Shown here: piece by piece, positions 1,781-43,964 of the stretch
Position numbering within the stretch: position 1 is the first letter of the stretch
Layout: the number at the start of each line of letters is the position of its first letter
Assembly: GCA_000091205.1 (NCBI GenBank)
Contig: AP006491.2
DNA from: Cyanidioschyzon merolae
Lineage: Eukaryota
Strand: one strand, 5' to 3'
DNA: 64,000 nucleotides
Position numbers and translations under genes: made by a program
The notes under the pieces: model-generated
What the model was told of the DNA's origin: nothing
The model's database searches: none
What the model saw: only the letters and a program-made list of their open reading frames with translations

Positions 1781-1884
1781 AGCCCTGTCCGCGATTCGAA
1801 CGAGATCCCTCGGAGGGTTCGGCTGTTCCGAGTCGGGACCTTCTGTTTACAAGACAGATGCTCTAACCGCTGAGCTAACAGGGC
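1781..1884 (-). tRNA. tRNA-Thr, anticodon UGU, with a 31-nt insertion (1803..1833) in the T-stem; possibly a non-canonical intron
   Basis: Reverse complement is GCCCTGTTAGCTCAGCGGTTAGAGCATCTGTCTTGTAAACAGAAGGTCCCG[ACTCGGAACAGCCGAACCCTCCGAGGGATCT]CGTTCGAATCGCGGACAGGGCT. Removing the bracketed 31 nt gives a 73-nt cloverleaf: a 7-bp acceptor stem, a 4-bp D stem, a 5-bp anticodon stem TCTGT/ACAGA, loop CTTGTAA (U33, UGU, A37), T-stem CCGCG/CGCGG, T-loop TTCGAAT, and discriminator U. The inserted segment contains its own hairpin CTCGGA/TCCGAG. Confidence 0.6.
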
Positions 1885-2919: not shown

Positions 2920-3522
2920 GAAAGCGTCCATAACGCTCCACCTACCTCCAAGTTCCATTACTCATACCTCTTCTTGGATACACTGGTCACTTCGCACGTT
3001 CTTTCGCACTCCGAGTGCCCGCCCTGATCGTCCGCGATAGCGCTTATACCGCTGGTGCGGGTACAGCACAGAGTCAGAACGGCTTTGCCATACCACTGAG
3101 GATATCGGACCGAGGAATGCTTCACCTGACACGGAGTCGGGGCTCATAATCAATCTAGGAACGAGCAAGTTGTGCTGATAGCCTTACTGCTCGCAACAGC
3201 GCGATGCGATGTTACAGGAGCCCACTGTAACCAGGATGACCTCAGGACGCATTATACGCGCTCCGGGTCTAAGGATAAACTGCGTTTCGGACGAGTTTCT
3301 GCTCAGATCTCGCCACAGCACCCGCCAATCTGGAGAGCATAAAGCACGAACCTTGCAGACTCGTCCACATCGCGGGACCTTACGCCTAGAAGGTGAACTT
3401 TCGACCGTTCGGAAAGCTTTCCCCCTTCAATGCTTACCGTTCGAGGGGGAAAGAAATTGTTATCTCGTTGCTAGTTCGCGGCTCGTTTCTGTACTCTTTT
3501 TTCTGCGTTACGCTCGATCACA
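2920..3522 (+). repeat. Dispersed repeat family 'R4', copy 1, containing a conserved hairpin
   Basis: Collinear similarity to 20120..20735 (cgtccgcgatagcgcYtata.., gccataccaSWgag, cgaggaatg, ..cgcctagaMgKtRaactttcg..). Hairpin at about 3416..3460 is ctttccccct-[17 nt]-agggggaaag. The homologous hairpin in copy 2 has a 7-bp stem tttcccc/ggggaaa with a similar loop, a compensatory change that preserves the stem. Confidence 0.65.
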
Positions 3523-3663
3523 AAGATCGCGATGCGTACGAATTCGCGCGTGAGTGTCGAGCCTCCACGCACATGGCGGGTCAGCGTTTCAGTTTGCAGC
3601 TTCTTGTTCATAGTGCACATATCGGTGTGGAGGTTGGAGCAAAGTGTTTCTTGTTTTCGCTGG

Positions 3664-6345
3664 ATGGCGAAAACACAAGCGCGGCAAGGGCAGCGGAACG
3701 CGGGGACCGACACAGCGCAGGGTCTTGGTCAAACTGTCGCTCCAGCGGCGGAGCCCGAACCGAACGATGCTCGAGAAGCACCAGCTCCGCAGCTGGAGAC
3801 TTCTTTATATGATAACGACTGGACCCATCGAACACATGCACTCGATGTGTTACGGTGGCTTGGATTTGGTGACTCTGTTGAGGCGCGCAGGCTCCGACGG
3901 TCGTTTGTTGCGCGGAAGCGTTCGCACTCGCCGGGTCAGCAGCGAGCCGGCGCACCGCCTTCGGGCCAGAATCGTTTTGACGGTCACCGTCGGAGTGCCG
4001 AGGACTCTACCTTTGCAGATCTTGAGAACGCTCGCGACGCTGGCGCCGAAAGTTCGCCGCACTGTGTGCGATGTGGCACGGAGTATCACGGTGAGGTGAT
4101 CGTGCGCGACGTTACGTTCTGCGTGCCGAAGCGAGGCACGGGCTTCCTTCATCTTGGCTTCTGTGGCGCTGAGGTGGCGCCTTTGCTCGAGCACGTCTAC
4201 GCGTACTTTCCACCGGGCAAGCTGTCCGGCATTATGGGCCCTTCGGGTTCAGGGAAAACTACGCTCCTAAATCAGATCGGGGGACGCATCCGTACCCTGG
4301 GAGCGACCGTCGCCGGGGAGATTCTCATTGACGCACATCAAAGGCCGAAAAAGGCAAAACGCTTCGTCGGCTACTGTGAACAGAACGACGTCCTGCCCGG
4401 TGACTTAACCGTCCGAGAGGCGCTCTGGTACGCTGCCCAGTTGAAACTACCGGAGCACTTATCGGACGAGGAGCGTTGGCGACGCGTAGAAGAGGTAATT
4501 GAAATTCTGAGTCTCGAGAAAATAGCGGATCAGCGCATCGGCGCTGATAACGATCGACAAATCAGTGGCGGTCAGGCGAAGCGGGTCAGCATCGCACTGG
4601 AAGTCATTGGCGATCCCCCAATATTCCTTGCTGACGAGCCAACGAGTGGGCAGGATACGCGCACCGCTTACTCTGTATGCCAAGCTTTACAGAATGTGGC
4701 ACACATCGGAGGCCAAACGGTCATTGCGACGATTCACCAGCCCTCGGTGGATGCCTGGGCCCTCTTCGATAATTTGGTGATCCTGGCGGCAGGTCGGGTG
4801 CTGTACAGTGGACGCGCGCAGCGTTTCCGCGACTACCTTATGCGAATAGAATTCCCGATTCCGGACAACCTCCATATAGCTCTACCTGACTACTTTATTG
4901 CCGTTGGTGTCAAGGCCGAAAAGAAGGAGCATCGCCTGAAAGGCAAAGGAGCAAGGAACTTTGATGACGAACAGGAGGACGAGGATCAGGACTTCGAAGG
5001 TGATGGTAACGACAACACCGTACAAGGCAATTTTGCTGAAATGAACATAACGGCCCACAAAAGATCCACTCGCGGTCAGCGTCGTGCGAAAACCTGGATA
5101 TCGGGGCTCACGCTTCCCTTTGCTGCACAGGAGTCAAGTCTGCGGTCCAGACGAATGACACGTGAGCGCAGTTGTACAGCATCAAACATGGACAACATTG
5201 CCGAGGTAGCTCGCCGCACCTTCGAGCAGCGTCAATTGTCCCATTATTCCGCAGTGAACGCTAGTCTGCCAGAGGAACACGAGCGAGCCATCAGGCAACG
5301 CACTGATGGCGACGACGCCCTCGTCGAGTCGATACTCGAGCGGCAGCGCTCTCAGTCACCAATGATGACATTTCGCCGCACCCCACAGGAATGGCGTGAG
5401 ATCTGGGAGCAGACTACCGAATACAAACGCCTTCGCTATGTTGCTGAGAGCCGCGCGAAATGCCTCGGGGAGTGCGGACTGCCGTACGCGTTCGGTGAAC
5501 CGACGTACATCACGAGCTGGTGGCGACAATTCCGGACGCTAACGGTACGCGCGTTTCAAGGCGAGGCGACGTCGCCACGTTTTCTCGCTTATCGCCTCAT
5601 CCTGGTGATCCTCGTGAATCCCGCAGGTCTGGCTACGATTTTTTGGCCTGCTCTGCGGCATCATTCGTCGTTGGCTCAGAACACTGCAGCAGCATCCTTT
5701 GTCGTGGCTGTCGCCAGTTGCATGGCGATTATGCGCACCTCCGTCGCGTTTTTGGAAGGGCGTGCGCTCATGTATCGTGAACGCTCTAGCGGTGCGTATC
5801 GCTCCTCCGCGCATTACCTGTCGACAATCGCCATGGAGGCACCGTTCAACGTATTAACCGCGATTGTTTTCTCCATTCTGGACTACTGGGCATTTGGTTA
5901 CCGCAAGAACGTCGGAGCGTTCTTTTTCTTCCTTTTCATCGTATACTTGAGCAATGCTTGTGCAGTGGGTATTGGACAGGGCCTGGCAGCGATTGCCCCG
6001 GACATAACGTTCGCATCGTCCTTTGCACCGGTTGTCTACATGACGTTTGCGGTTCTCGCGGGCTATCTGCTGCCACAGAGCCTCATCCCAATTTACTGGA
6101 AAGTTCTTCTGTACTACGCGAATCCGATCAGCTGGGCGTTTCGAGCGATCCTTCTGAATGAGTGGCAGCCGTACCTGGACGGAGCAACGCCGCCACCCTA
6201 CTTAGACTATCGTTCGGAACTGCGAACGCTTGGTTTGGAAAATCAGAGCAGATGGACAAGTGTCTACGTGTTGGTGGGCATTTATGCCGGCGCACGGCTC
6301 GTGACCTACGTCTTTCAGCGTTTCCTGAAATACGCCCATAACTAG
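3664..6345 (+). CDS. ABC transporter, ABCG/White-type half transporter (N-terminal nucleotide-binding domain then ABC-2 membrane domain); an alternative upstream ATG exists at 3532
   Basis: Walker A GPSGSGKTTLLN. ABC signature ISGGQAKRVSIALE. Walker B IFLADEPTSGQD. H-loop ATIHQPS. A C-terminal multi-helix hydrophobic domain. An acidic linker (DDEQEDEDQDFEGDGNDN) sits between the two domains. Stop codon TAG. Confidence 0.85.
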   Translation: MAKTQARQGQRNAGTDTAQGLGQTVAPAAEPEPNDAREAPAPQLETSLYDNDWTHRTHALDVLRWLGFGDSVEARRLRRSFVARKRSHSPGQQRAGAPPSGQNRFDGHRRSAEDSTFADLENARDAGAESSPHCVRCGTEYHGEVIVRDVTFCVPKRGTGFLHLGFCGAEVAPLLEHVYAYFPPGKLSGIMGPSGSGKTTLLNQIGGRIRTLGATVAGEILIDAHQRPKKAKRFVGYCEQNDVLPGDLTVREALWYAAQLKLPEHLSDEERWRRVEEVIEILSLEKIADQRIGADNDRQISGGQAKRVSIALEVIGDPPIFLADEPTSGQDTRTAYSVCQALQNVAHIGGQTVIATIHQPSVDAWALFDNLVILAAGRVLYSGRAQRFRDYLMRIEFPIPDNLHIALPDYFIAVGVKAEKKEHRLKGKGARNFDDEQEDEDQDFEGDGNDNTVQGNFAEMNITAHKRSTRGQRRAKTWISGLTLPFAAQESSLRSRRMTRERSCTASNMDNIAEVARRTFEQRQLSHYSAVNASLPEEHERAIRQRTDGDDALVESILERQRSQSPMMTFRRTPQEWREIWEQTTEYKRLRYVAESRAKCLGECGLPYAFGEPTYITSWWRQFRTLTVRAFQGEATSPRFLAYRLILVILVNPAGLATIFWPALRHHSSLAQNTAAASFVVAVASCMAIMRTSVAFLEGRALMYRERSSGAYRSSAHYLSTIAMEAPFNVLTAIVFSILDYWAFGYRKNVGAFFFFLFIVYLSNACAVGIGQGLAAIAPDITFASSFAPVVYMTFAVLAGYLLPQSLIPIYWKVLLYYANPISWAFRAILLNEWQPYLDGATPPPYLDYRSELRTLGLENQSRWTSVYVLVGIYAGARLVTYVFQRFLKYAHN

Positions 6346-10754: not shown

Positions 10755-11138
10755 CTAGCTCCAAGCGCCGTTCCATGTGCTCAGCAAAATGGAAAACGTG
10801 TCGCGATCATACGGTAAATGAATACCGATGTGGAGGCGGATTCTAGTCGTTTTCGACCGGCCCATTGCTATCGACTTCAGCTTATCTTTGCATTCATCGA
10901 GTCTGAGAGGTTGCCCCACAAAGTTCGCTCGTGTTTGTTCCTCGGGCCTCGTCTTGAACACCGCACATCTCCTGGTATTGATGGTAGGGTTAAAGTCTTG
11001 GTTTACGAACTGCATGCATTCAATGACGCTTATTGATCGCACCGGTGCAAAGAGTCCTCGAACCGGTATCCTCTGTGCCACGACACTCTCGTTATTGTCC
11101 CGTCGGCAAAGCACCTCTTCTCGCGTATCTCCCCTCAT
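10755..11138 (-). mobile_element. 3' fragment of the TnpB/Fanzor-like element family (RuvC-III region only)
   Basis: Translation FVNQDFNPTINTRRCAVFKTRPEEQTRANFVGQPLRLDECKDKLKSIAMGRSKTTRIRLH aligns with the C-terminus of the ORF at 23135..24133 (FVNRDFNAVINLRRCAVLEKRSPDSTRGNFVGQPIQVELYEKKLEAVVSGWSIETGRRLY) and with the copy at 45.6-45.9 kb. Confidence 0.5.
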
Positions 11139-12345: not shown

Positions 12346-12899
12346 GAGGGTGTCACCTTACAGTGAAACCGGTGCATTTTTTCGTCTTTCTTATGCAAAT
12401 CCTAGTCCCTCCGTGTAGGTCCTCACACAACGGCATCAACAATTGCTTTCATTTTAAAAAATAAGGAATGAGCATGAATGCACAATTCAGGAGATCGGAA
12501 TGCAGAAAAGCCAGCGGAGCGCTGACAGAGCAGCAAATGATACTGAGAGCGCGAGTTCGAGGACTCCTTGCACTAATGAGTTCAGAAAACGCCTAGAAAT
12601 GGAGGGAGGTAGCGAACCGAGACTTTAACACCGCCACTAATATCAGGACATGTGCGATGCTGACGACGATACCCGAGATGCTGAGGCGATCTAGTTTTGT
12701 GAGACAGCCTCTCAGGGTTAGAGCGTACAAGGAGAAGCGAAAACCGATAGCAAGCGGCTGGTCAAGAAACGTCGGGAGGCACCTGCGAGTGGGTAGATAT
12801 ACTTACTCTCTATCATTGTGAAGCGTTTTTTTGTTTCACTGACGATCTCTGCACATCATTCACCCATATAAGAATCAAATCGAACGGGTCTGCGGACAC

Positions 12900-17300: not shown

Positions 17301-17855
17301 TTAGACGGGCGCTTGACCGCTGTCTCTGGGTGCAGTCTCCGCAGAAGCCCTCTGTCCGGGGTGTTGCTCGGGTTCGGCAGCCGGCTGCAGCGGTTTCAAG
17401 TCTAACACTCGTTGCGACCAGTGCGTCTGCCAGTCTTCGATACTGAGTCGCACCTCCGCCGCCAGGTGTGAGTTCGGAAGTCGCAAGATACGCTCCAAGC
17501 AGCTGGGCACCGTGCTCAGCGCTCCAGCGTAGCCGCTCACCCCAGCAGTGGCGACAATAGCGAGCACCCGCAACCAGGCTGGAACGCGCGCACGCCAACT
17601 ATCCTGGAAAAAGCGTGTCGAGCCAGGACGAGCCCGCCATGGTAAACCGTAGAGCACCAGACTAGAGAGCAGTGCGCCGCCGACAAGTGCCCCTGTTCCT
17701 CGAAGAGCTGCCTGTCGTGCGCAGTCCCGAAGCACCAGCTGCTCATCCGGACGCATGCTGGACCAGTTCAGCACCAGCGACTCTGATTTTCGGCCTGTGT
17801 TAGCTTTCTGCCGTCTGGTATCAGGGGTCTCAGCTCGAGGCTGCTCAGTTGTCAT
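17301..17855 (-). CDS. Hypothetical small protein with two glycine-rich hydrophobic helices (possibly an organellar membrane protein)
   Basis: A 184-codon ORF with an ATG start at 17855. Hydrophobic segments GALVGGALLSSLVLYGL and VLAIVATAGVSGYAGAL. No motif I can name. Confidence 0.3.
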   Translation of the reverse strand: MTTEQPRAETPDTRRQKANTGRKSESLVLNWSSMRPDEQLVLRDCARQAALRGTGALVGGALLSSLVLYGLPWRARPGSTRFFQDSWRARVPAWLRVLAIVATAGVSGYAGALSTVPSCLERILRLPNSHLAAEVRLSIEDWQTHWSQRVLDLKPLQPAAEPEQHPGQRASAETAPRDSGQAPV

Positions 17856-18613
17856 TGGGGGTTTTCATCAAAAGAAGCAGCAACAGGAGCAGCGGCGACG
17901 AGCGCAGCCCCGTGCCTTGAACGCACGTGCCTGCGCTGGATGGACAAACCTCGTTTCCTCGTTGCGACGAGAGGTCGCCATACAGCACTGCATTGAACGG
18001 GAGAATATCGGGTGCGTATGCGTAGAAACATCGACTGACGACTCTGTGCGATAGTGTTCAACCCAAATCCTTTAGTGAAACGTCAACAACTGAGATTCTG
18101 CTAAATGTGCTCCATTTCCGTAAGCGACGTACGTTGCGTCGCTCGAACTCCAGCCGCAGCTAACGCTCACCATTGCTGCTACAGGCTGTGAACGAGGTGA
18201 CCACTGTTGAAGCTGTCGTGGCTCACGCTTCTCTACTGCCTTTTCCTGCTGCTTTGAACAGCTTTTCCGACGGAAACTAAACAGAAACTCGGAGACTTGT
18301 TCCAGTCCGTGAACCTGTTTGCATCTGTAGCAAAGGCCTGGCGTCCTCAAGCGTGAAAGCATCCGGCGCGCTTGCCACAGTGGCGACACGTCACGCTTCA
18401 ACAACGGGTATTGTAACGCTTTCCATGTGTTATTGAAGCTCCAGTCTGGCGGCTGCACACGGCCGATGCACTCCCTCCGAGTCGTATGCGAAAACGCGGC
18501 ATCGAGCGATCCCTCCCCAGAGAAGAGCAACGACGCTCGGTACTACCAGGAGAGCGTGCCCACTGAATTCGATGTGCATCGGCTCTGGATGACCCTGTCC
18601 AGCGGGTTTCTAC

Positions 18614-19382
18614 CTAACCACGAGTTGAAGACCGGACACAAATGGAGCCCAATTCGTTCCCGAATTCACTGTAGACGGCAACAGGTCTTCGCGCGGCCCG
18701 GATTTCATCGATAGCGGCTTTGTAGTCCTTGGCACCAAACACTGCTGAACTGGCTACCAGGGCGTTCGCACCCGCCTCGACAACACGCCAGGCGTTGGAG
18801 CCCTTCACGCCGCCGTCGACCTCGAGCCAGAGATCATGCTTGCCGAGGCGATCAGCCATCTTCCGTATCTCGGTGATTTTCGGCAACACCTCGTCAATAA
18901 ATGCTTGCCCGCCGTACCCCGGATTTACGCTCATCACCAGCACCAGGTCCACGATAGGTAGGACGTACTCAATTGCCATTGGTGGCGTGGCCGGGTTCAG
19001 AACGACACCGGCACGACACCCGAGGCTTCGAATCATCTGCAGCGTTCGATGCAGGTGGATCGTCGACTCGCCCTCGCAATGCACGCTGATGATGTCAGCG
19101 CCTGCTTTGGCAAAGGCGGGGATGTGTTGGTCTGGATTCACGACCATCAAGTGAACGTCAAGCGGCCGCTGTGTAACCGGACGCAGCGCCTCCACGACGC
19201 CTGCGCCGATGGTTATTGGCGGTACAAAGTGCCCGTCCATAACGTCAACATGTATCCAGTCTGCACCGAAACGGTCTACGGCGCTTACCTCTTCACCGAG
19301 TCGGGCAAAGTTTGCCGACAGAGTGGAAGGTGCAACCACAACTTGCCCCGGTTTGGGCGTGGGGTACCCTTTCCACACCCAT
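18614..19382 (-). CDS. RPE: Ribulose-phosphate 3-epimerase; proposed two-exon model with exon 1 = ATGG (19379..19382), a 37-nt intron (19342..19378, GT..AG), and exon 2 = 18614..19341
   Basis: The conserved RPE core ([19 protein letters not shown].., ..[12 protein letters not shown].., ..VDGGV..) fills the ORF. The ORF has no in-frame ATG; the track start at 19378 is GTG. An out-of-frame ATG sits 4 nt upstream, followed by GTGTGG...GCAAG. Splicing that out yields [20 protein letters not shown], the canonical RPE N-terminus. Confidence 0.85.
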
Positions 19383-20119
19383 GCGCAGGGGACGACCCTT
19401 TGCTGTGCTGCTGCGCGGTTTTGGTCCCCGCCTGCACGCTACCGTCTCTTACGTCCAGACATTTGCTTGCGCTCGAGAGCACTGTGAACCAGTTACTATA
19501 AACGCGCACATGGAACGAGTTCCAAGCGCCGGTGCAGCTCGCCTTGTCGTAGACACAGATGAGCGCTGGAGCGTACAGCGCTCGGTGGTACCTAGCGGCG
19601 TCGGTGGCGGCGGTGATGAAGCGTCTGAGACAGGCGTCGATGGCCGTCCAGTGACGGGTGTCAAATTTGATCTAAAACTGGAATGAGTGTTCAAGATTCA
19701 AAGGTTGCCGTTGCGGCAGCGGTGCCAGGCTGCTCTCTCGCAGGGATACTATTTACGTAGCTACGATCAATATCCAGAGCTGCATCTAGGATGCCTCCGA
19801 ACAGGCTCGCTTTGATCATATGTGGACCGTTTCGACGGGAACGCTTTCGACAGCACCACACGGACCTGGAAGGTCGTTCACCTATCTGTTGAGAAAAAGC
19901 GCATATACGGCACATGAACTGGCTGGTCCACGGACACGTCAGTGACAACTCATTTTCGCAATGCGTTGTGATATATCGAGTGAACCGTCGGAAAAACGTC
20001 TTTACCACTGAACGAGTTGAGTATACCTGACTAGCGGCGCGCGTGAAGGACACACTCGATTCCTTTTCGTTGGACGAAACGTTGACCCACAGAGCAGCAA
20101 TCCCTGAGAGCGTGCTCGG

Positions 20120-20735
20120 TAACCGCGCGTTGTGGGGTTTCCATCGTTCCGCGCCCTCCTCGCAAGTTCCGCTTCCCATACGTTCCCTCGGAGGTACCGA
20201 TTATTTTCAAGTTCGACCGTGTGCCGACTGCCCGTCGCGAGCGTCCGCGATAGCGCCTATAGCGGCGGCGCGGTCGTAGCATAGACAGAGAGAACCGACA
20301 TGCCATACCAGAGAGCGCATCGACTCGAGGAATGTCACGGCTGAGTCACGGTCGAGGTTCATGATCATTCTGGGAGCCTGCAAGCTGCGCTGGCAGACCT
20401 ACTGCCTGCGACAGCGCGAATCGATATCCTAGGAGTCCACTGCGACCAGGGCGACGCCCAGATGCAGCTTAACTGTCCCTAGTCCCAGAATGAATTGCTT
20501 TGTGGACGAGTAGCACAGGTTTCTTTCAAGAACGCGCCGCTGGGAGGGGCATGAAGCACGAGCCTGGCAGACTCGTTCGGCTCGCGCTACTTTCCGCCTA
20601 GACGTTAAACTTTCGGAAATACGGAAAAAATTTTCCCCTTTTAATGTTTAATGTAGACGGGGAAAGAAATCGATAGCTCGTTGCTCGTGACTCGTGAGTC
20701 TCTTTCCTTTTTTTTCTAAATAGCGCGGTTGAGAC
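20120..20735 (+). repeat. Dispersed repeat family 'R4', copy 2, immediately 5' of the Fanzor-like element
   Basis: Collinear with 2920..3522. Conserved hairpin at about 20626..20670 (tttcccc-[20 nt]-ggggaaa). Confidence 0.65.
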
Positions 20736-21017
20736 GCGCAATTCAGAGATCTGGCAGTCATGAGATATGACGCGCTTGTCGCCGTTGAAGGGAGACACGA
20801 TCCAAACCTTTATGATCCAGCAGTAAAGTAAAAGTTCTATTTCCGTTGAAGTCGTAGCAAACTGCAGTTTTCAGTTGAATCGTGTTTCAACCCTCAAATA
20901 AGTGTATTCAAGTCCTTTTTCGCGGTTTATAGGAGAAGCGTTCAAAGAGCGCCCTTTTTCAAAAAAAATAAAAAAGGAAATGTTATCAAAAACCAAGTCG
21001 ACGATCCTGGAGGCCAA

Positions 21018-21359
21018 GTGTCGCTGGCTGCCAGAAAAAACAAAAAACAGTACCGAGTCCAGAAGAAAAGAAAGAGAAGAAGGACCGAAAGGAGGGAGGT
21101 CCTACGTCGAAGGCTGCAAGAAAGACCACACTACAACGAACTGGTTATGAAAGCCTGTCTTCTTGAACAGATCAAGGTTCCGTGCAAGAAAAAGTTACGA
21201 GAGTCCATTCGAAACCGTTTTGAGCCGAACTCCATGACTATAATACAGGTGTCGTCAGGACTAATGCATTTGGCGGGGGAGATGTATCGCGAAGTGACGC
21301 ACATGGAAACGGTCCAGCTTCCGAACGAGTTTTCGACGAGACCTTTATTCGTCACATGA
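21018..21359 (+). CDS. Element ORF1: basic, NLS-like protein (KKRKRRRTERR). Its TGA stop overlaps the ATG of the nuclease ORF (ATGA)
   Basis: The ORF is conserved in copy C (44013..44501, MHIAKEMYRNVTHMETVEVPDEF..) and copy B (33303..33581, minus strand). The start codon is uncertain: the track start is GTG, and a further ORF at 20902..21150 in another frame may belong to the same protein. The ATGA overlap is present in both copy A and copy C. Confidence 0.4.
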   Translation: MSLAARKNKKQYRVQKKRKRRRTERREVLRRRLQERPHYNELVMKACLLEQIKVPCKKKLRESIRNRFEPNSMTIIQVSSGLMHLAGEMYREVTHMETVQLPNEFSTRPLFVT

Positions 21360-24133
21360 CGATTGGTACAGCGGAAGCGCGGAGGGAAAATGAACGCGTG
21401 CACGTCCTGCACGAAAAACACCTCTTTTACAGCTTCGAGGGTACTCGGTATACAGGTGACGCGGATATTTACATGTACGGGGCGATGAAGTACCTGACGA
21501 ACCTGAAGAACCATGTGACGATGAACCTCGAACGTTTCATGATACGCGCCGTGTTTGCGCTGTACCCGGGAATCTCACGCAAGGGGATATGGGCGATTAT
21601 CAATGGCGCCACGAACGATCGCAGGCATGAAGATGAGGTCGAATTTGTCGAGAAGAAGGCGTCAAACGAGAGCACGAATGAAGCTTCTGTAATCCGTGCG
21701 GCTATGCAAGAGCACGGCGCAGTCATGGGGCTACCGAATCCAACAGAAAAGATGTCAGAGTTAAAAAAAGATAAGGAAAGGTACTATCGCCTCATCCTGC
21801 GCTATTTTGTGTTTCTGAATCGTGAACTCGAACGCAAGGCGGAGATGAAGCTGAGTGAAGAGACAAATGAAGAGTGGGAGAGACGGAAGGCTTTCCTAAT
21901 GGGGAAGCAGTTAAACGTGGTTCCGTTGTGCAACATCAAGTAGTATTTTGTGAGTATCGATTCAGGCGTCCTTTACGGCATCATGAAGGAGATCAGTCCG
22001 GGGTTCAATGTTAGCAGGGAGGACTTCATCGGTGAAAACCGGGAGACGTACTGGAAGAGTATCTTCGATTTCAAACGTCTCAAAGTCAGCAAACAAAAGT
22101 TATTCACTGGGATGATCGAAACCGATGGCGTAGCCATGTGTGCACACTATCGGCGGTTGAAGAAAGAGTGTCCAGTTCCACCCTCGGCTGCACCCGTGAC
22201 GAAGGATGAAGAAAACAAAGAAGAGGATCCTGCGATGCAGGAGGTGGAGGATAACGACTTTGTCGTTGACATTACGAAGGATGAAGATGAGAAGACGGCG
22301 GATCCTGCGACGCAGGAGGTGCAGGATAACGGCTTTATCATTGGCGCGGCGAAGCATGAAGAAAACAAAGAAGAGGATCCTGCGACTCAGGAGGTAGAGA
22401 ATAACGACCTTGTTGTTGACATTACGAAGGATGAAGATGAGAAGACGGCGGATCCTGCGACGCAGGAGGTGCAGGATAACGGCTTTATCATTGGCGCGGC
22501 GAAGCATGAAGAAAACAAAGAAGAGGATCCTGCGACTCAGGAGGTAGAGAATAACGACCTTGTTGTTGACATTACGAAGGATGAAGATGAGAAGACGGCG
22601 GATCCTGCGACGCAGGAGGTGCAGGATAACGGCTTTATCATTGGCGCGGCGAAGCATGAAGAAAACAAAGAAGAGGATCCTGCGACTCAGGAGGTAGAGA
22701 ATAACGACCTTGTTGTTGACATTACGAAGGATGAAGATGAGAAGACGGCGGATCCTGCGACGCAGGAGGTGCAGGATAACGGCTTTATCATTGGCGCGGC
22801 GAAGCATGAAGAAAACAAAGAAGAGGATCCTGCGACTCAGGAGGTAGAGAATAACGACCTTGTTGTTGACATTACGAAGGATGAAGATGAGAAGACGGCG
22901 GATCCTGTGATGCAGGAGGTGCAAGATAACGACCTTGTCGTTGACGCGACGAAGCATGAAGAAAACAAAGAAGAGGATCCTGCGACTCAGGAGGTAGAGA
23001 ATAACGACCTTGTTGTTGACATTACGAAGGATGAAGATGAGAAGACGGCGGATCCTGTGATGCAGGAGGTGCAAGATAACGACCTTGTCGTTGACGCGAC
23101 GAAGCATTAAGAAAACAAGAAGGCGGATCCTGCGATGCAGAATGTGCAGGATAACGACTTTGTCGTTGGCGCGGACCCTGGGAATACGAATATCATAACC
23201 ATCGCTGTACCCAAGCGTGCGGAAGATGGTACTGAAGGTAATTTACGTCAGAAAGACATGCGTCTTTTGAGATTCTCGAGGGCAAGATATTACCGAGAAT
23301 CCGGTATAATGAATGCGAGGAAGAAAATCGAGACTTGGAATTCAGGAATGAAAGAGCGCCTGGAAGCTTTGAGCGAGGTGACGAGCCGCGGAGCGGATTA
23401 TGAAGCTTTTCGGAGATTCATGGAAGTTCGTGTTGCCCATTGGGATGCGCTGTGGAAGGAGTATACAAAGCCCAGTTGGGCTCGTCTGCGAATGAATCTG
23501 TACGGTGTGAAGCAGCGGGCGTTTGCGAATTTTTTCAATCAGTTGAGCGCCCTGAAGGAGGATGAAAGTCAGAGGCTCGTAGTAGCATACGGAGCAGGGC
23601 GATGGAAGACCCAAAAAGGGACTACGCCAGCTCCAACGACAAGAACGTATAAGGAGTGCGCACGGCGTTTTGCCTCGATACCTATAGACGAGTTTCAAAC
23701 ATCGTATACACACCATGAACTGAGGTGCACACTCCAGAGGGCCGAGATGGAAAAGTGCCAGACGAACCCTGAGGATATGAAAAAGTACGGACCGCTGACG
23801 GAAGAGCAAATGGAAAGGAGGACGAAAGTTCGAAGATTATTTGTATTAGTAAGTACAACCGATGACGGCAAGAAACGCATGGAATTCGTGAACCGTGACT
23901 TTAACGCCGTTATCAATCTAAGGAGATGTGCGGTGCTGGAGAAAAGATCTCCAGATTCGACAAGAGGGAACTTTGTTGGACAACCTATCCAAGTCGAACT
24001 ATATGAGAAAAAGTTGGAAGCAGTAGTGAGTGGCTGGTCCATAGAGACGGGGAGGCGTCTGTACGTCAGTTGGAGACTTCTTGTCAAGGGCGGGTTTCTC
24101 GCCACTACTGTACACTGCTGTCGTTCGACTTAG
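21356..24133 (+). pseudogene. TnpB/Fanzor-like RuvC-nuclease ORF (about 925 codons) interrupted by two in-frame stops (TAG 21941..21943, TAA 23108..23110)
   Basis: A single reading frame runs across 21356..21943, 21950..23110 and 23135..24133. RuvC-I-like motif: NDFVVGADPGNTNIITIAV. TnpB 'YTSQ'-like motif: IPIDEFQTSYTHHELRC. RuvC-III-like motif: FVNRDFNAVINLRRCAV (the D-x-NAA-x-NI pattern of TnpB/Cas12/Fanzor). The TAA lies where every other repeat unit has GAA. Confidence 0.65.
22230..23107 (+). repeat. In-frame tandem repeat, 75-bp unit (25 aa), two alternating subtypes forming a 150-bp higher-order repeat, about 11.7 units
   Basis: Units DPA(M/T)QEV(E/Q)DND(F/L)VVDITKDEDEKTA alternate with DPATQEVQDNGFIIGAAKHEENKEE. 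The unit resembles the sequence just before RuvC-I (MQNVQDNDFVVGADPG). This periodicity generates the long antisense ORF at 22100..23107. Confidence 0.85.
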
Positions 24134-24249
24134 AACGGCGGTGGTGGCTTGTCCATTAGCACGCGTCAACGCAGACTTAGGTGCCCGACGCTTCTTGGAT
24201 ACGCGCGCCGCCTGTAATGAACTGAGGAAACACCAGCAGCACTGGCGTC

Positions 24250-25563
24250 ATGCTTGAACGCGGTACGCTAGAAGCGGCGAAGACTGAAACGCCCGCCTCT
24301 CAAGCGGTTGTTTCGGATCACTCGGAAATAGATCGCGTCCGCGTAACGGTAACAAGCCGGGATCGACCGGGTATCACCGCAGCTATTACAGCTGTGGTGG
24401 CGCGATGCTCCTGTGAGATCCTCTCCGTGCGTCAAGTATGCGTGCGTCGACGTCTAACCTTGATGTTTGAGCTTCTAGTGAAGAACGCGTTTCCACAACA
24501 GTCTATCTTTCGTGAGCTTCTATTAGTCAGCAAGCGTATCGGAGTGTCCGTCGATTTCTCGCTACAGCCGTCAACAGAAATATCTTCCGCTGAGGCTTGC
24601 ATGCTGCAGCACGCGTCAGAGCAGTACGTCATTACCGCTATCGCGGCGGACTCGATTACTCCGGCGTTTCTCGCTGATCTTGGGCAGAAATTGCAAGAAC
24701 GGAACTTTGTTCTCGAGTCGGTGAACAAGTTGAGCCAGCATCGCCTCGGCTGCATTGAACTGGTGGTTTCATCCCCGGCGTCCTCGTCGTCCAGCGACAT
24801 TCAACAGTTTCGCTCGGAGATGTTTGTGCTTGGGCGCAAGTACGCGACCGATGTCGCCGTGCAAAAAGAGAGTCTCATCCGCAAAAGCAAACGCCTCGTG
24901 GTCATGGATATGGATAGCACGCTGATCCAACAGGAAGTGATTGATGAGCTCGCTCGCTATGCAGGCAAATTCGAGGCGGTGCAGGAAATCACGCACCGAG
25001 CCATGTGCGGGGAACTCGACTTTAGAACAAGTCTGTACAAGCGCGTGGAATGCTTGAAGGGAACGCCCGCCACCGTCTTTCAAAAGGTGATCGATCATCT
25101 GGTGTACACGCCTGGTGCGCATTTCCTGGCACATTCCTTGAAACGACTCGGGTACAAACTGGCAGTCATTTCCGGGGGCTTCGCTCCGATTGCCCAGCAC
25201 GTGCGACAGACGCTCGGACTTGATTATGCGTACGCGAACCAGCTGGAAGTTGGTCCGGACGGGTGTTTTACGGGCCGAACGGTGGGCCCCATTGTCGACG
25301 GCCAACGCAAGGCAGACCTCTTGATGGCCATCGCCCAACAGGAGCAGATCGACCTCGAGCAGACAATCTGCATTGGTGATGGAGCCAACGATTTGCCAAT
25401 GTTATCGATGGCGGGTCTCGGCATCGCCTTCAATGCAAAGCCTGCTGTCCAGGAGCGGGCAGCTTTTCGTCTCAATCGCCAAAGCCTCGACTCTGTCCTC
25501 TATTTTCTCGGTATTCCAGAATCTGAGCAGATTCAGTTACGAGAGCACAACGATGCATCGTAG
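24250..25563 (+). CDS. serB: Phosphoserine phosphatase (N-terminal ACT-like regulatory domain plus a HAD-family SerB domain)
   Basis: HAD motif I VVMDMDSTLIQQEVIDELA. Motif III-IV ICIGDGANDLPML. An ACT-like segment DRVRVTVTSRDRPGITAAITAVVA. ATG start at 24250 and TAG stop. Confidence 0.9.
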   Translation: MLERGTLEAAKTETPASQAVVSDHSEIDRVRVTVTSRDRPGITAAITAVVARCSCEILSVRQVCVRRRLTLMFELLVKNAFPQQSIFRELLLVSKRIGVSVDFSLQPSTEISSAEACMLQHASEQYVITAIAADSITPAFLADLGQKLQERNFVLESVNKLSQHRLGCIELVVSSPASSSSSDIQQFRSEMFVLGRKYATDVAVQKESLIRKSKRLVVMDMDSTLIQQEVIDELARYAGKFEAVQEITHRAMCGELDFRTSLYKRVECLKGTPATVFQKVIDHLVYTPGAHFLAHSLKRLGYKLAVISGGFAPIAQHVRQTLGLDYAYANQLEVGPDGCFTGRTVGPIVDGQRKADLLMAIAQQEQIDLEQTICIGDGANDLPMLSMAGLGIAFNAKPAVQERAAFRLNRQSLDSVLYFLGIPESEQIQLREHNDAS

Positions 25564-26841
25564 AGGCATCGGTACGTATTGGAAGAGACGCCGCACATCC
25601 TCCAAACGTGATTCGTTCCGGGGATCAGCGATTGCATTTGCGGCACGTGCTGCACGCGAAGACGATCTACGCTTCGCTCCCGCACCACGAACTGTTCGCT
25701 GAATGCGAGGGCACCGGCCTGCACCCGCCAAGGTTGTATATGTGTGTGCGCTGTTGAGCAATACCCGGACGCGCGCAACGCCGCTACGGCATATGGTACG
25801 ATGCCGAAGCGCATGCCCAGAGGCAACGAAGTTGCCGACATGCGGCTCACGCTACGTCTGCGCGTATCCTCGGGGCGCTACTGAAGCGGATGCGATGCTG
25901 CTGGGCCCTCATTGTACTGATGAGTATCGTCGACCAGATTTGGGGACGAGGTGCATGCCTGGTTCCGAATACACCTAGCGACACGTGGATGCATTTATCG
26001 CCAGGTGTCCGCCAAGTGTTCCATGTACAGCAGCAGGGCGGCAACGCAACGCGCAAGCGCTTGGGCAGCTCGCGGGAGAGCCACGAGCACGTGACTCGGT
26101 CCGGCAAGAGCCTCTGCGGAACAGCGCGCTATCTGAAGAAGCTGGCACTACGGGAATGCTCCTGGGATCACGGAATGCGGGCATGTGCATGTTGTAGCTT
26201 CTTTTGCAGCAGGCACCTGTCTCGCGATCGAGGCGCATCACAAGCGCACTAGAAATTGGAACAGCAGTGCAAGGTGATTGTCGCGATACCACGCTATTTA
26301 TCTAGCATTGCACAGTGTTGCGATGGGCGCGTTTTGTGCTTCCTGCCCCGCACTGGCATGTGCAGTTACTAAAATCAGCATGCTTTGCAGATGACTAGGG
26401 AGCCGTTTGTGCACGCTAACGCCTCGCCAGAACGACCACAATAACGAGGCGACAACGCTGCAGCAGACGTCGTCAATACCACGACCACCACCACCACAGC
26501 ACAGACGTGGGAAACCGGCGAACTGGTGGCATGCACGATATAGTGTCCATTGTCCAAGAGCGTGTTACGGAGCGCTGACGGTGTGTCGTATCTTGGCAGG
26601 AAACGCACGAATACTGATCTACACTGCCATCCTGTTCTGCGGAACGAGCTGCAGTTGGCGCCCGCACTTTTCGGACATGTACCAACGCCAGAAATTCCAA
26701 AGACGTCACGCTTCGGGTTCATAAGTGACCTGCTTTCAAGAAGCTAGTACGTTCGCCTACTTTACGCAGACGTTCGGCAACGCCACCTCTTAGAGCAGGC
26801 CGCGCGTACAATTCACATCACCCGACGGCTTGCTCCTATTG

Positions 26842-27261
26842 TCAGTCGTGTTCAAGGCCCATTCGCTTCTCCATGGCGAGGTGTACATCCAACACGCGCT
26901 CATCCAAGCTTTCCAGCCGACCAGCGCGTGCGTGAAACTCGCCAGGCTGGAGTGTTTCGATTGCACCGCTTAGTACCTCCCAGCCCAGGCACGAGGAGCG
27001 CATGGTCACTGGACGATAGACTTCTCGCATGATGTGCTCCTCGAACAGCAGCCTCAGCGGCAAGTGTGTTCCGTATACTTGAGCGAGCCAACGCACGCGT
27101 TCCTCGCGGTAACGGGTGCGGTCGCGTTCCTCCAGCACTTGCACGGGGTGGCGCTCGCGACTGATCGAATCCACGGTTTCGTACGGATTCGACCGAAAAC
27201 GGTCTCGAGGAAAGTTTCGCTGCAAGTCCAGATCGTAAAAGTCGTTTTTGCTGCCGCTCAT
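26842..27261 (-). CDS. Hypothetical charged soluble protein, about 139 aa from the first ATG
   Basis: An intergenic ORF of non-repetitive, balanced composition (..FYDLDLQRNFPRDRFRSNPYETVDSISRERHPVQVLEERDRTRYREERVRWLAQVYG..). No motif I can name. The track start at 27312 is GTG. Confidence 0.3.
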   Translation of the reverse strand: MSGSKNDFYDLDLQRNFPRDRFRSNPYETVDSISRERHPVQVLEERDRTRYREERVRWLAQVYGTHLPLRLLFEEHIMREVYRPVTMRSSCLGWEVLSGAIETLQPGEFHARAGRLESLDERVLDVHLAMEKRMGLEHD

Positions 27262-28622
27262 AACCACAGAGTCTGAGTGCGTTGCGTCCGCAAAACGTCC
27301 AAGGTCGCTCACTGCTCTACGCTGCGCGCTGCTTTCGGCGGTTCAGCTGCGCCGACGGTGCACAGCGCGCCTCGCTTGGCGGCGATGTCGAGCGGGAAAA
27401 CATAGTACGCCGCTGCGTCCTCATATTGCCGTCGTTATTCATGGTGCACGCTCGCTGAAAATCTACCGGTGATTATCGGGTGTGCTATGGGTATCAAAAT
27501 GTGGGGAATGCATCCTGGATCGGTTTGTGTTCCGCGCTGGTCCTAGCATGTGCGATGCACGACTCGAATACACACACAGGTATGCATGTGGTATTGTCAT
27601 CGTCGGTGCAGCATTTCAGAGGGCGAATGTGACGATTTCGGTTGAAGCAACGTGGGCAGGGCGTCTGCGGCAACTTTTCTGGATTCGGATCTACAGCTGT
27701 CGGATGGTCCATATGGCGGGGCGCCCTTGGCGATGCAAAGAAAGCGGGTATCGTTGGAGTGCGTTTCAGAAGTTCACTCAAAAGGAAGCTCTCTGACGCA
27801 TGACACATCAATCTGAGAGAACTGCGTCCATACATAGCGCGATGCACGTTCCATATTCAGGGATACGTCTCATTCATAGAGTGCGGGATCGACACATGTA
27901 GCCAGAATCATGTTTATAAGCGATGCTCGGCAGGCAGCGACGAAGCATGCGCGCACAGCACCTCAGCAGATCCTCCCGTATTCGATGCACATGGGACGAT
28001 TTTCCCATTTTTACAGTATAACATGGATCAATCTAACTAGCATCTTCTGTGGACGCCATTCTTTTCGGTAAAAAAGAGAAGCTTGCACCATACTGCTCCA
28101 GAAGCTTCCACGTTCCACGACTCGTATAAGTGGCGTCGGTGCAATGCGTGCGCTGGTGCGCATCGCCGCTTCCACTGGATGCGTCCACAGCAGTTGAGGC
28201 ATGCGGGCACAATAGCTCATGAGGCGGTGCATGGAGACAATTTGCGTGCTTTGAGAGCGTTCTGGTCAGTTCAGTGCCAGCAACTTGCAGACACAATGCA
28301 GGTCTCACGGGACGGTTCACGAACCATCGCGTGATCCCAAATCACTTTGCACGTGCAGGTAAAGCGCCTTCGTTTCGAAATATCGCTTTAGAACTCTTTC
28401 CCGCTAGAAGAGGAAGCCAGCCAACAAAATCCACGGCAGACTCTCACTTCGCTGAACCGTTACCAAGCCACACACTAGTCGCCGAAAACACGCTTTTTCC
28501 CGCTCGGCTATGGCTAGTCGTGGAAACTGAAGCAAAAAAACACAGAAAACGCAAGGGCATGGCCAGTTCACTCAGACGGTTCCGTCAAACAGCGCCAGCG
28601 CTCAAGTGCTTTTTCCCACGAC

Positions 28623-32425: not shown

Positions 32426-32857
32426 GTGAATGAGGCCTGGATAGACCACGGGACAGAGCTGCATGAAGACGCAACTGGGCACTGCCAAGACCCAATCTAT
32501 TGGCACCAGTATGCCGCAGAACTACCGCGCCTCGAACCGGTACCGGAATGGAACGACCCAATCTTCTGGCCTGAATCTGTTCGGGCCCTGTTAAGCTCAT
32601 GCAACCGCAAAACACCTGGCATTGACGGTATCGCTGCCGAGTGGATGAAACTGGTGATCCCAAAATACGAGACAACAGGGACACCATCGATACCACGCCT
32701 CAAGTCGACGCCCGTTGTGGTACGGCAACGCCGTTCTGTCTCCGTGCAGCGACCGCACCGGCGCTATAGGCGCTATTGCTGTCGCTTTCGGCAGGCACTA
32801 GGCACACACGATAGGACGTATGAAACGACCAGAATATCCGAGATGAAGTATAGGTAA
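32426..32857 (+). pseudogene. Fragment of a reverse transcriptase from a non-LTR (LINE-like) retrotransposon (N-terminal RT motif only)
   Basis: ..VRALLSSCNRKTPGIDGIAAEWMKLV.. matches the conserved K-x-PGPDGI motif at the N-terminal boundary of the RT domain. No further RT motifs follow, so the copy is truncated or degenerate. Confidence 0.4.
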
Positions 32858-32965: not shown

Positions 32966-33760
32966 CTAAGTAAACGTTTTGTGAGTGGAAAAAAATTTGA
33001 TAATCGCCCATATCCCCTTGCGTGAGATTCCCGGGTACAGCGCAAACACGGCGCGTATCATGAAACGTTCGAGGTTCATCGTCACATGGTTCTTCAGGTT
33101 CGTCAGGTACTTGATGGCCCCGTATTCGTAAATATCCGCGTCACCTGTATACCGAGTACCATCGAAGCTGTAAAAGAGATGTTTTTCGTGGAGGACGTGC
33201 ACGCGTTCATTTTCCCTCCGCGCTTCCGCTGTACCAAGCATCAGGTGACGAATAAAGGTCTCGTCGAAAACTCGTTCGGAAGCTGGACCGTTTCCATGTG
33301 CGTCATTTCGGGATACATCTCCCCGCCAAATGCACTAGTCCTGACGACACCTGTATTATAGTCATGGAGTTCGGCTCAAAACGGTTTCGAATGGACTCTC
33401 GTAACTTTTTCTTGCACGGAACCTTGATCTGTCCAAGAAGACAGGCTTTCATAACCAGTTCGTTGTAGTGTGGTCTTTCTTGCAGCCATCGACGTAGGAC
33501 CTCCCTCCTTTCGGTCCTTCTTCTCTTCCTTTTCTTCTGGACTCGGTACTGTTTTTTGTTTTTTCTGGCAGCCAGCGACACCTAGGCCACCAGGATCCTC
33601 CACTTAATTCCCCATAGGTTTCCTACTTTATTTTTTTGAAAAGGAACGCTCTTTGAACGCTTATGTCATATAATGGGAAAAACACTTGAATACACTTGTT
33701 TGAGGTTTGAAACACGAATGAACTGAAAACTATGCTTTGCTACGACTACATCGCAAATCC
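32966..33760 (-). mobile_element. TnpB/Fanzor-like element, copy B: a 5' fragment (ORF1 plus the N-terminus of the nuclease ORF), then truncated
   Basis: ORFs at 33303..33581 (MSLAARKNKKQYRVQKKRKRRRTERREVLRRW..) and 32966..33241 (MLGTAEARRENERVHVLHEKHLF..ISRKGIWAII) are over 90% identical to copy A. The 5' leader matches copy A at 20850-20990. Homology ends after GIWAII. Confidence 0.65.
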
Positions 33761-34899
33761 AACTTGTTCGTTGGATCTACACACTCTATCTCGCCATGCG
33801 ATGCCGTTGTCATCCGTTCGACAAGGCCCCCAGCCACAGTGAACGCGCCTAATCTGGAGTCTCATGTCCCCCTAACAAGAAAACGTATTGTCAAGCTCGC
33901 GTTTCCCTTCAACGGCTACATTCGCGCCGTATCTCGTGACGGCCTGATCGCCCAGGTGCGCGTATCGAGTGCGCCACACAGAAAAAAGAACAGAGACTCT
34001 CGATTCACGAGCATGTAGATTTTGTTTTCCCTTTCGACGATAAACTTTGAAAGGAGAGAAAGCTTTCCGTATTTTAGAAACTTTACCTTTTACGCGTAAG
34101 ATCCCTAGAACTGTAAGAGTCTGCTAAGCTGGTGCTCGGTGTTCATCTAAAGTGGCTGGAGCAGCCGCGAGACCTGAGCAACTCGTCCCCAGAGCGGTTT
34201 ATTCCGGGACCAGGGGTGCTTAGGCAGCGTCTGCACGCCGCCCTGGTCGCAGCGTATCCAGTGGTAAGCCTAGACTGTTCTGTCTACGTGCCATGACCGC
34301 AGCGGCGCAATGGGGGCTACGGCGGGTGCTCACGGCATGCATTCGACACGCGATAGGGCGTGCGAAAGGACAATTATATCCGAGAAGAAGAATGGCTAAT
34401 GGAACGTGAAAGTAGAGTGCAACATGGTGGACGCTTTCCCCGAAGTCGCTGGCGGCGCGTCTCCATTCCATGCGAAAGTGCTGCACCGAGTTACTGGTAT
34501 CGATGACCCGAGTTCGATTAAACTTGAACAGTATATTGCTCGCCCTCTTCCTGCTTTTCGAATTTTAAAACTTTATTCCGATGGAAAGCCGCGGCATTCG
34601 AAAAGGGGCTATTGTGACTTACGCATTCTAACGAATATGCGGATCCTCGGCAGCGTTTTTGGAATGGCCTCCTCAACGCGTTACCACGGGAACTCTTTCA
34701 GTTCCGGGACGCGAGCTCATTTGCGAGACCCCCCGAGCGAGACTTCTTAAAATACCCGATACGATGATCCACCGCATACGCCCAAGTCTCCAAGCTTCCC
34801 TTTTTCTCACGATAAGTATGCTTCAACCATAAATGTTTCAAGGCGACCCGTTGACGCAGCAATGCACGTCACTAGATTGATGAGCAGAAAAATTCGACT

Positions 34900-38362: not shown

Positions 38363-39449
38363 GATCGAGTAGGATGACGAGGTCAGGACCCGTCTCGATG
38401 CTCTGGGTTCCTTTCCGATGAATGAGGACATTTTCTGCGCCTTATTTCGAGCGAATATTAGCGTCCAACTAGCGAAATCGGACAATCTCCGGCTGGAGTG
38501 CATGACATCGTGCACGGGACGCCAACGGTATCCGCAGTGCAGAGACAACAAGCGTGGATTCAAGTGTCTGCTCAATATGTAGGAAATAGAAATGACGAAC
38601 ATGACGTGTCGTTTGGTCGAGGCCCCTGGCTCTGGAGGTGCTGCAACGCGCTGAACCTGCACTTTTGCTCCGTCGACCAGCGCGCACAAAGTGAGCAGGA
38701 ACTGAATCTTTCCATCTCCCATCGATGCAATCCAGACGATTTGAGCGCATCACGAGCACAAGGGCACGTTGAGCGTGCTAGACGACAACAGCAACATCGT
38801 GAAGCAATGACGAATGCACCAGATGATGGAAAGTTAGTTGACCATCCGTTTATGGCGAGGCAGTCGGGGGCAAGAGACTTGCGATGATATGACTCTCCGC
38901 GCAACAGTACGCGCCATGACTTGATGCATCGTGACAGGAAGGCTCCCATCACGAGCGAGGGATGTCTCGTGCTTCCCGGGCGGACGTCCGTCGGCTCGGT
39001 ATCCAGCGAGCTTTCGCAGGAATCGTTTCGTACCAAGCGTGTGCGTTGTGCTGCGATGCGGAAGACTTGCGCTCACGAAATCAGTGCCTGGGAGAGGGTC
39101 ATAGATTCCCGTCTGGCTCAAGGCCCTGGCATGATACGGGGTCACCAATGCGGCAAGGCTGGTACGTTCTATGCATACATCGGGAACGGTTTCCCAGGTA
39201 ATCGGTGAACAAGAATGGTGCCATATCATTCAGTAGTACTGAATATTGGTATATATAGGCAGAACGTTTCACCGTAAACCTCTGATGGATTCCTAAAGCA
39301 ACGTCAGACTGAATCGGATCGGGTCCGTTCAGATAACCCGAGTGTTTACGCTCAACATGAGGGTCTCTTCTCCTTGTCATCAACATGAGCGTTTTGCGCG
39401 CTTCCACTGCGAATGCTTCCTTTTTCTCTCGCTTATATGCGGTTTTCAG

Positions 39450-43341: not shown

Positions 43342-43964
43342 CTCCGTCGTGCCTGTGCAGCTACTGAAAGCTGATAAGCACAGGACAAAAGTTCAGAGGC
43401 TACAAACACGTCTTTGCATCCACGTCCGAGCACACATTCGTCAGGGACGCTGCAAAATAGACCCCCGATGGATCCGCCTCCGATGCCGGGGAGTGTAGGC
43501 CCCGGTGCGCTTCGACGGCCTTGTTTCGTTGTTCGCAGCCGCAGCTCGATGCGCGATCTCCGGCGGATGCGCGCCTGCCGTGGACGTAACGGTCGCGCGA
43601 TGCTACTGGGCCTTGCATCGCATACGACTCAAATGTACAGAAATGTTCAAATTGATACGGCGATCGTTACGAGCGCGTGTGCGTGCGATTTGGCTGTGAT
43701 GGAAAAACGTGTCCATGGACTGTGGATGGCCCAAATTGCGGGATAGGTGAGCATTGACATTCGGGAAAGCGTCCATCATGCTGCGCAATACTCACGCCCA
43801 AGTTCTATTACCTATGCTTCCTATTTTCTATATGGTGCGCTTGATATTTGCACCTCCAGATCTGACATGCATTGAACACGTCGCGCATGTCGCCGCTTTA
43901 GGGAAACGCGATACTGATCATCAGCGTGACGCTCGAACGAACAAGTTGTATTTGCGTCAAATTC

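Follow-up and report, generated by a model that had tools for sequence, protein, structure and literature searches.

Inherited nonsense codons in a decayed CMe-1A (Fanzor1) copy of Cyanidioschyzon merolae 10D

Introduction

The passages on Cyanidioschyzon merolae in the survey of Bao and Jurka (2013; Mobile DNA 4:12; PMC3627910) list its CMe element as Fanzor1 and describe the family CMe-1A as having ~150 copies, each ~80% identical to a roughly 3-kb consensus. According to the same passages, CMe-1A lacks terminal inverted repeats (TIRs), its target-site duplications are left undefined, its 5' 635 bp correspond to the short element TE-N2_CMe and some of its copies are intact. A second point of reference is SpuFz1, the Fanzor1 protein of Spizellomyces punctatus (Saito et al. 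2023; structure 8GKH), which has an omega-RNA derived from the transposon end. The element that carries it is flanked by 33-bp TIRs and TA duplications, whereas CMe-1A has none. A further comparison is offered by the bacterial tnpB-only elements of the IS200/IS605 type, which share with CMe-1A a single TnpB-like nuclease gene, the absence of inverted repeats and a structured 3' sequence that stops exactly at the right boundary of the element. CMe-1A differs from them in being eukaryotic and nuclear, and in coding for a protein about twice as long with an NLS-like N-terminus. The tnpB-only elements likely rely on a transposase acting in trans, as CMe-1A probably does too; no TnpA-like gene was seen in the stretch of DNA analysed here (64 kb; hereafter the window).

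Within this window lies an interrupted Fanzor-like reading frame that a first-pass annotation took to be intact apart from two nonsense codons, and therefore to have been inactivated very recently or, with lesser probability, to be read through. Our analysis points instead, with high confidence, to one fixed, non-functional CMe-1A (Fanzor1) insertion in C. merolae 10D, which decayed neutrally after a long period of purifying selection and whose lesions are older than the split between strains.

Results and Discussion

The element, its ends and its neighborhood

The window is anchored to its organism by two host ORFs identical to proteins of C. merolae 10D, namely BAM79981.1 (phosphoserine phosphatase) and BAM79987.1 (methionyl-tRNA synthetase). 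The insertion is bordered upstream by a divergent region and on the other side by serB, which codes for the phosphoserine phosphatase. Comparison with paralogs delimits the following parts of the element and related sequences in the window:

20211-24147, + strand: whole CMe-1A (Fanzor1) copy, delimited by paralog homology; ~3.94 kb, or ~3.03 kb without 12 extra repeat units (900 nt)
20211-20984, + strand: 5' non-coding region, with related stand-alone pieces at 3011-3475, at 32698-32807 and downstream of other copies
24072-24147, + strand: 3'-terminal structured region with three hairpins (24072-24088, 24088-24103 and 24114-24145); MFE -34.4 kcal/mol, z = -4.2
32997-34252, - strand: 5' fragment, 92% identical to this copy
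43824-45882, + strand: internally deleted, heavily decayed copy, ~72% identical to this copy
10905-11090, 12479-12743, 38373-38771 and 54839-55604: weaker remnants

The right end is sharp: in dozens of copies, paralog homology ceases at 24146-24148. The 5' limit can be placed only approximately, homology setting in at 20211-20224 in the long-form copies and at ~20724 in others; a further stretch of homology upstream of 20211 in a MAFFT alignment was discarded for want of BLAST support. Judging by sequence relationships, the non-coding region at 20211-20984 is probably the part held in common with TE-N2_CMe. All in all, the window holds at least seven CMe-1A fragments, and the copy studied here is 72-92% identical to the other window copies and 78-86% identical to environmental ones.

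In these respects the element conforms to CMe-1A as portrayed in the passages of Bao and Jurka (2013): it resides in the same genome, has a single Fanzor1 ORF, measures ~3 kb once the repeat expansion is subtracted and shows no TIRs, while its copies are numerous in the genome, ~70-85% identical to one another, and have a 5' part that also occurs as separate short elements. The assignment is thus made on genome, length, lack of TIRs, range of identity to other copies and the occurrence of the 5' part elsewhere. Nothing essential distinguishes the window element, which is one decayed copy of the family. Absent from those passages are a 25-residue repeat that precedes the RuvC-I motif, the sharp right end with its three hairpins and a quantified history of selection.

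Of 32 non-redundant copies, most fold into the same three hairpins, with stem sequences that differ between the subfamilies. A hand-drawn three-hairpin structure leaves 78% of the alignment cells paired, versus 35-52% when the register is slid. Covariation in the hairpins is not significant, being reached by 41 of 500 shuffles, and RNAalifold applied to the sequence-based 3' alignment returns a weak consensus; part of the reason for the weak covariation is that the alignment does not bring the hairpin 3 versions of two subfamilies into register. From this analysis, the 3' hairpins could be regarded as a candidate omega-RNA scaffold of the kind known from Fanzor and TnpB systems or, equally well, as transposon-end hairpins.

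Fanzor1 affinities of the encoded protein

A reconstruction of the ORF with its repeat collapsed recovered 54 homologs, nearly all of which come from hot-spring metagenomes and share 60-85% identity with it, along with a few at 30-39%. A family profile made from an 11-sequence alignment matches a single solved structure in the PDB, S. punctatus Fanzor1 8GKH (E = 3e-5), which establishes homology to Fanzor1. The match runs from the WED/REC part to RuvC-II, and the likeness extends to the D...E...D motifs; the similarity of SpuFz1 to CMe-1A is nonetheless very low and confined to part of the protein. Neither the reconstructed protein nor any of six homologs gave a match in Pfam-A. The homologs bear the precomputed label PF26935. 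The split RuvC triad is present in the window copy, with its D-E-D residues in order (GADPG, IDEFQTS, NRDFNA):

23168-23191, + strand: RuvC-I motif GADPGNTN, catalytic Asp kept; D377 is invariant in the 11-sequence alignment
23684-23704, + strand: RuvC-II motif IDEFQTS, Glu kept; E549 is invariant, and the motif aligns with LLDEYKTS of SpuFz1
23888-23911, + strand: RuvC-III motif VNRDFNAV, Asp kept; D618 and N620 are invariant

The CMe family is peculiar in its zinc-finger region, where it has HHELxC and LLALVSTT in places at which relatives have cysteine pairs; no full cysteine pair is retained (THHELGC...C and LLALVSTT), and more distant relatives show LLWC.STS. In the window copy, the HHELRC that follows RuvC-II stands where we take a CxxC zinc knuckle to be expected from Fanzor/TnpB comparisons. 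The zinc finger is probably degenerate, as far as these sequences allow a prediction. The initial reading of the ORF as a Fanzor (specifically Fanzor1) pseudogene, and of its host as using the standard code, is upheld, as is the description of the host stop codons as ordinary, the nine host ORFs that we examined ending in TAG or TGA.

Lesions of the reading frame

TAG at 21941-21943 and TAA at 23108-23110 are, as first reported, the sole stops within a 2.9-kb frame at 21224-24133. This is the frame of the ATG at 21356, and it ends at the TAG at 24131-24133. Outside these limits the same frame has 21 stops in 1.2 kb upstream and ~20 in 1.2 kb downstream, or one per ~60 nt; given this density on both flanks, the open frame is far from what chance would produce and is a real coding relic. 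The contention that it is intact apart from two nonsense codons does not survive, however, since the family ORF begins ~370 nt 5' of the ATG at 21356, and in that segment the start codon has been lost and a frameshift in a T-run is uncompensated. The start had been called at an ATG lying just past this frameshift, and so the N-terminal lesions were missed.

We placed the lesions against a majority consensus built from 37 near-full-length copies, the metagenome scan having furnished 80 related loci. The consensus translates as an open frame beginning MKKQVDDPGGPVSPAARKKQKTVPSPEEKEEKK, with the ORF start MKKQVDDPGG. A consensus stop at the codon corresponding to window position 23957 was considered as the natural terminus and rejected as artefactual, the codon being hypervariable (TAG 11, TCG 7, TGG 6, TTG 5). 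Relative to other copies, the window copy displays the following changes:

20985-20987, + strand: start codon lost, ATC replacing the ATG of the family (ATG in 26 of 39 aligned copies)
21031-21102, + strand: compensating frameshift pair, indels relative to the majority consensus that rewrite 18 codons of the K/R-rich N-terminus
21331-21334, + strand: uncompensated -1 frameshift, TTTT versus TTTTT in the family, within the conserved motif PDEFFDKTFIRH
21941-21943, + strand: nonsense TAG, ancestrally Ser, seen only in the window copy and in the orthologous allele L037
23108-23110, + strand: nonsense TAA in place of an original GAA (Glu), located in the last repeat unit, which is ancestral

The compensated pair combines a -1 change in the A-run at 21031-21050 (A6, not A7) with a +1 change at 21087-21102, a stretch rich in G. 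We entertained programmed frameshifting at the A-run and rejected it, because copies differ in the length of the run (A6 to A10) and because the -1 is compensated downstream in this copy. At the T-run, the frame switches between ...QLPNEF and FDETFIRHM; the change is a deletion with respect to the consensus, and the run is TTTTT in window copy C.

At the TAG site the paralogs have TCA (60), GCA (4), TCG (3) or TTA (1), and the homologous proteins read CNIKSHF around it. At the TAA site GAA is found in 53 of 84 paralogous copies and a stop in none of the 84; within the array itself, the first-pass observation that TAA replaces a GAA present elsewhere holds at the matching position of all 12 other repeat units. 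Apart from the window copy, TAA is confined to orthologous contigs of three assemblies (Ga0080006_1139754, Ga0078972_1021186 and JGI24721J44947_10020228). The stops had been taken for mutations of a single locus rather than a property shared by all copies, and the wider comparison agrees, as ~70-80 paralogs have sense codons at both sites. With four clearly disabling lesions (ATC, the T-run -1, TAG and TAA) in addition to the compensated pair, this copy has neither the start codon nor the uninterrupted frame of an intact gene.

The functional master copy that had been anticipated elsewhere would accord with the intact CMe-1A copies mentioned by Bao and Jurka (2013), but it did not come to light: none of the 37 near-full-length environmental copies or the other window copies is intact, and all bear at least two lesions. 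L043/L005, which combine a frameshift in the A-run with a late stop, are the least damaged environmental copies; L047, with two stops, comes next, and the longest ORFs (P0001 of 752 aa and P0101 of 716 aa) are without the N-terminus. The members of 17 protein clusters of the family are exclusively metagenomic, with no NCBI-annotated C. merolae protein among them.

Orthologous alleles and the age of the lesions

Exact matches to the serB protein led to metagenomic contigs that carry the same insertion and are 98.7-99.1% identical to window 22851-28564. On the upstream side, L037 is 97.7% identical to window 19176-22371 and has the TAG at 21941 and the ATC, along with a T-run as long as that of the window copy; L080 matches window 17575-21833 and likewise has the ATC and that T-run length. 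The TAA is present in L001/L027, L002/L064 and L063, which are the contigs from the three assemblies named above. Exact-protein look-ups of the pieces of the window Fanzor ORF and of an upstream ORF at 19691-20179 gave no match. As the family is multicopy and the alleles were assembled from short reads, some of their positions could be chimeric.

The stops are genuine, private to one insertion and inherited by its alleles. As both of them, together with the ATC and the T-run deletion, are common to alleles that have diverged by 1-2.3%, they are older than the split between the 10D and environmental lineages. This sharing also disposes of the notion of a "very recent" inactivation. The idea that the environmental contigs are contamination by, or derivatives of, strain 10D is disfavoured by their 1-2.3% divergence.

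Selection before and after inactivation

Against the consensus, the window copy has a dN/dS of 0.25 (1632 aligned coding positions), the lowest among the copies tested, and along the lineages of the family the ratio lies at 0.25-0.5. Its differences from the consensus are distributed 35:33:87 over the three codon positions. The skew across codon positions and the low dN/dS together indicate that most of the divergence accrued while the lineage encoded a protein under selection. A long-lasting coding capacity is remarked upon in the passages of Bao and Jurka (2013; PMC3627910), and the dN/dS obtained here puts a figure on it.

The substitutions found in no other copy have a different signature. 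There are 34 of them (2.1%), of which 27 are nonsynonymous and 7 synonymous; they are distributed 12:11:11 over the codon positions and match the neutral expectation. Of those in the N-terminal half, 15/18 predate the split of the alleles, as do about half or more of those in the C-terminal half. Between alleles, pN/pS is ~1 in the N-terminal half, and next door in serB pN is 0 with a pS of 0.6-1.9%. In the C-terminal half the ratio between alleles is ~0.5 rather than 1, the differences being gathered in tight paralog-like clusters that we tentatively read as gene conversion or chimeric metagenome contigs. Inactivation is hence late relative to the age of the family, yet not very recent. The earlier suggestion of a recently active copy holds to the extent that the lineage remained protein-coding until late (the dN/dS of 0.25 against the consensus); it fails in that the private substitutions are neutral.

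The 25-residue repeat array

Immediately upstream of the catalytic region, the frame is occupied by a tandem array:

22198-23172, + strand: array of 13 tandem 75-nt units, each encoding an acidic 25-aa stretch, from Tandem Repeats Finder and the unit layout; just 5' of RuvC-I

The array is organised as higher-order double units of 150 nt, four of which, at 22273-22872, are 100% identical (0 differences), which implies a recent amplification. The TAA had been placed inside a just-expanded repeat. The array did grow recently, as the identical double units attest, but the TAA itself is in the last, ancestral unit, outside the amplified block; this terminal unit adjoins GADPG and is present in every family member. 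The amplification probably hit a gene that was already dead.

Measured as the distance between flanking anchors, the number of units is 1-7 in 56 environmental copies versus 13 here, longer arrays being of a kind that short-read assemblies would miss. The homologous proteins have 2-8 units, and the distant relatives at 30-39% identity have none. The allelic contig L001/L027 is ~7.5% different in the last units versus ~1.5% elsewhere, which suggests that turnover of the array is ongoing.

A long shot, in our estimation, is that the 25-residue repeat is a functional, rapidly length-varying module of the active CMe-1A Fanzor1, perhaps a tunable linker, perhaps an autoinhibitory DNA mimic, and, as a separate matter, that dead copies supply omega-RNAs via their intact 3' hairpins to Fanzor made elsewhere, thereby redirecting it to their own flanks. 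ORF-bearing relatives have 1-7 units where this copy has 13.

Alternative explanations and a proposed history

Several features of the locus would sit comfortably with a very recent inactivation of an otherwise intact and recently active copy: the RuvC D-E-D motifs are intact, the dN/dS against the consensus is the lowest of the tested copies, a mere two stops interrupt 2.9 kb and the amplified repeat units are identical. We nevertheless consider it very unlikely, because further lesions lie upstream (ATC for ATG and the T-run -1), every lesion is common to alleles diverged by 1-2.3%, and the neutral terminal branch of 2.1% is mostly older than the strain split. That three ORF pieces lie in one frame, with stops kept in the alleles, might be thought to signal a programmed arrangement, whether by readthrough, recoding or a split into N-terminal, repeat and RuvC polypeptides. 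This we find scarcely credible: some 70 paralogs at the first site and 80 at the second have sense codons, host genes use the usual stop codons, the alleles evolve neutrally and descent accounts for their sharing of the stops. The first piece, moreover, is without a start codon and lies behind a frameshift, which makes stop-codon readthrough in particular pointless.

An artefact of sequencing or assembly, affecting either the stops or the 13-unit array, deserves thought as tandem arrays and homopolymers are error-prone and all the metagenome contigs break within the array, so that the length of 13 units rests on the reference. It is extremely improbable all the same, given that the TAG recurs in one independent assembly and the TAA in three, from other samples, and that L037 and L080 show identical homopolymer lengths. 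The possibility of error in the stops, raised at the outset, is accordingly not borne out. With paralogs having sense codons at both sites and independent assemblies agreeing on the stops, the decay of a single locus is the reading to be preferred over assembly error, readthrough or a programmed split.

Under neutral decay, the history of the element may be pictured as follows. Extrapolating from the biochemistry of Fanzor1, the active element would have specified one ~700-aa protein composed of a K/R-rich N-terminus, a variable acidic linker of 25-residue repeats and a RuvC D-E-D nuclease. The guide of this protein would be an omega-RNA made from the structured 3' end, and guided cleavage of DNA matching the flank of the element could aid its persistence. 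The ancestral lineage was under purifying selection at the protein level, giving way to neutral evolution after insertion at this site. The copy lost its start codon, suffered the T-run frameshift and acquired the TCG to TAG and GAA to TAA changes, all four before the 10D/environmental split. Either at the same time or afterwards, the 150-nt double unit of the repeat already in place was amplified to yield the array of 13 units, probably by slippage during replication or by unequal exchange.

Implications

The transposon family has been on record since 2013, from a model alga whose genome is fully sequenced, and the copy beside serB is an ordinary, moderately old pseudogene. Its stops are real and old, and there is no recoding or split-gene arrangement. 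Anyone taking it for a near-intact Fanzor template would have to repair at least four lesions and collapse the repeat. For rebuilding an active Fanzor1 of a thermoacidophilic red alga together with its guide RNA, the intact consensus ORF from the environmental copies, the sharp right end with its hairpins, the dN/dS values and the variation in repeat number may help.

Variation among CMe-1A copies

The N-terminal K/R-rich coding region of the Fanzor1 transposon family CMe-1A contains a hypervariable A-run, which ranges from A6 to A10 across the window copy (21031-21050) and the homologous sites in the related metagenomic loci L005-L079, with A7 being the in-frame length. In the window copy, the -1 state of this run is offset by a +1 approximately 55 nt downstream, and this pair may have originated before selection on the gene had ceased. 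The codon at 23957-23959, which is TCG in the window, is likewise hypervariable: all four bases occur at its second position across 39 copies (TAG in 11, TCG in seven, TGG in six and TTG in five, along with others), and the majority consensus consequently acquires a spurious stop. The best-preserved of the copies seen is the right-hand member of a head-to-head CMe-1A pair (18-1632 and 2936-5684) on the environmental contig L043 (Ga0078972_1000527), its lesions being a single frameshift, in the A-run, and a single stop codon late in the frame.

Differences between the window copy and four allelic metagenomic contigs (L002, L003, L004 and L063) are tightly clustered at window positions 23818-23896. 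L003 shows a further tight cluster at 23377-23587, and its changes are for the most part G>A and C>T. Such clustering of allelic differences reflects one of three processes: a mutational episode, gene conversion with paralogs as donors, or chimerism in the metagenome assemblies.

Homolog labels and other features

Many of the homologous proteins (P0001-P0052) carry the precomputed Pfam label PF26935, but neither these homologs nor the window protein were matched in our local Pfam-A library; hence, the two Pfam versions evidently differ. A 335-aa antisense ORF at 22100-23107 (-) lies wholly inside the tandem array and was rejected as a gene, being a repeat artefact.

Near the window start, Rfam gives a tRNA match at 1781-1884 (-) (47.7 bits, 104 nt span), although ARAGORN calls none there. 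C. merolae is known for intron-containing and otherwise unusual tRNA genes, and this locus is probably a tRNA gene with an intron or one unusual in some other respect.

Transposon fragments in the window

Other fragments derived from CMe-1A or Fanzor1 number at least seven in the 64-kb window, among them 5' pieces resembling the short element TE-N2.

CMe-1A/Fanzor1-derived fragments
3011-3475 (+)
10905-11090 (-)
12479-12743 (+)
32698-32807 (-)
32997-34252 (-)
38373-38771 (+)
43824-45882 (+)
54839-55604 (+)

The C. merolae genome is considered transposon-poor, and relative to this reputation the local density of fragments in the window is high.
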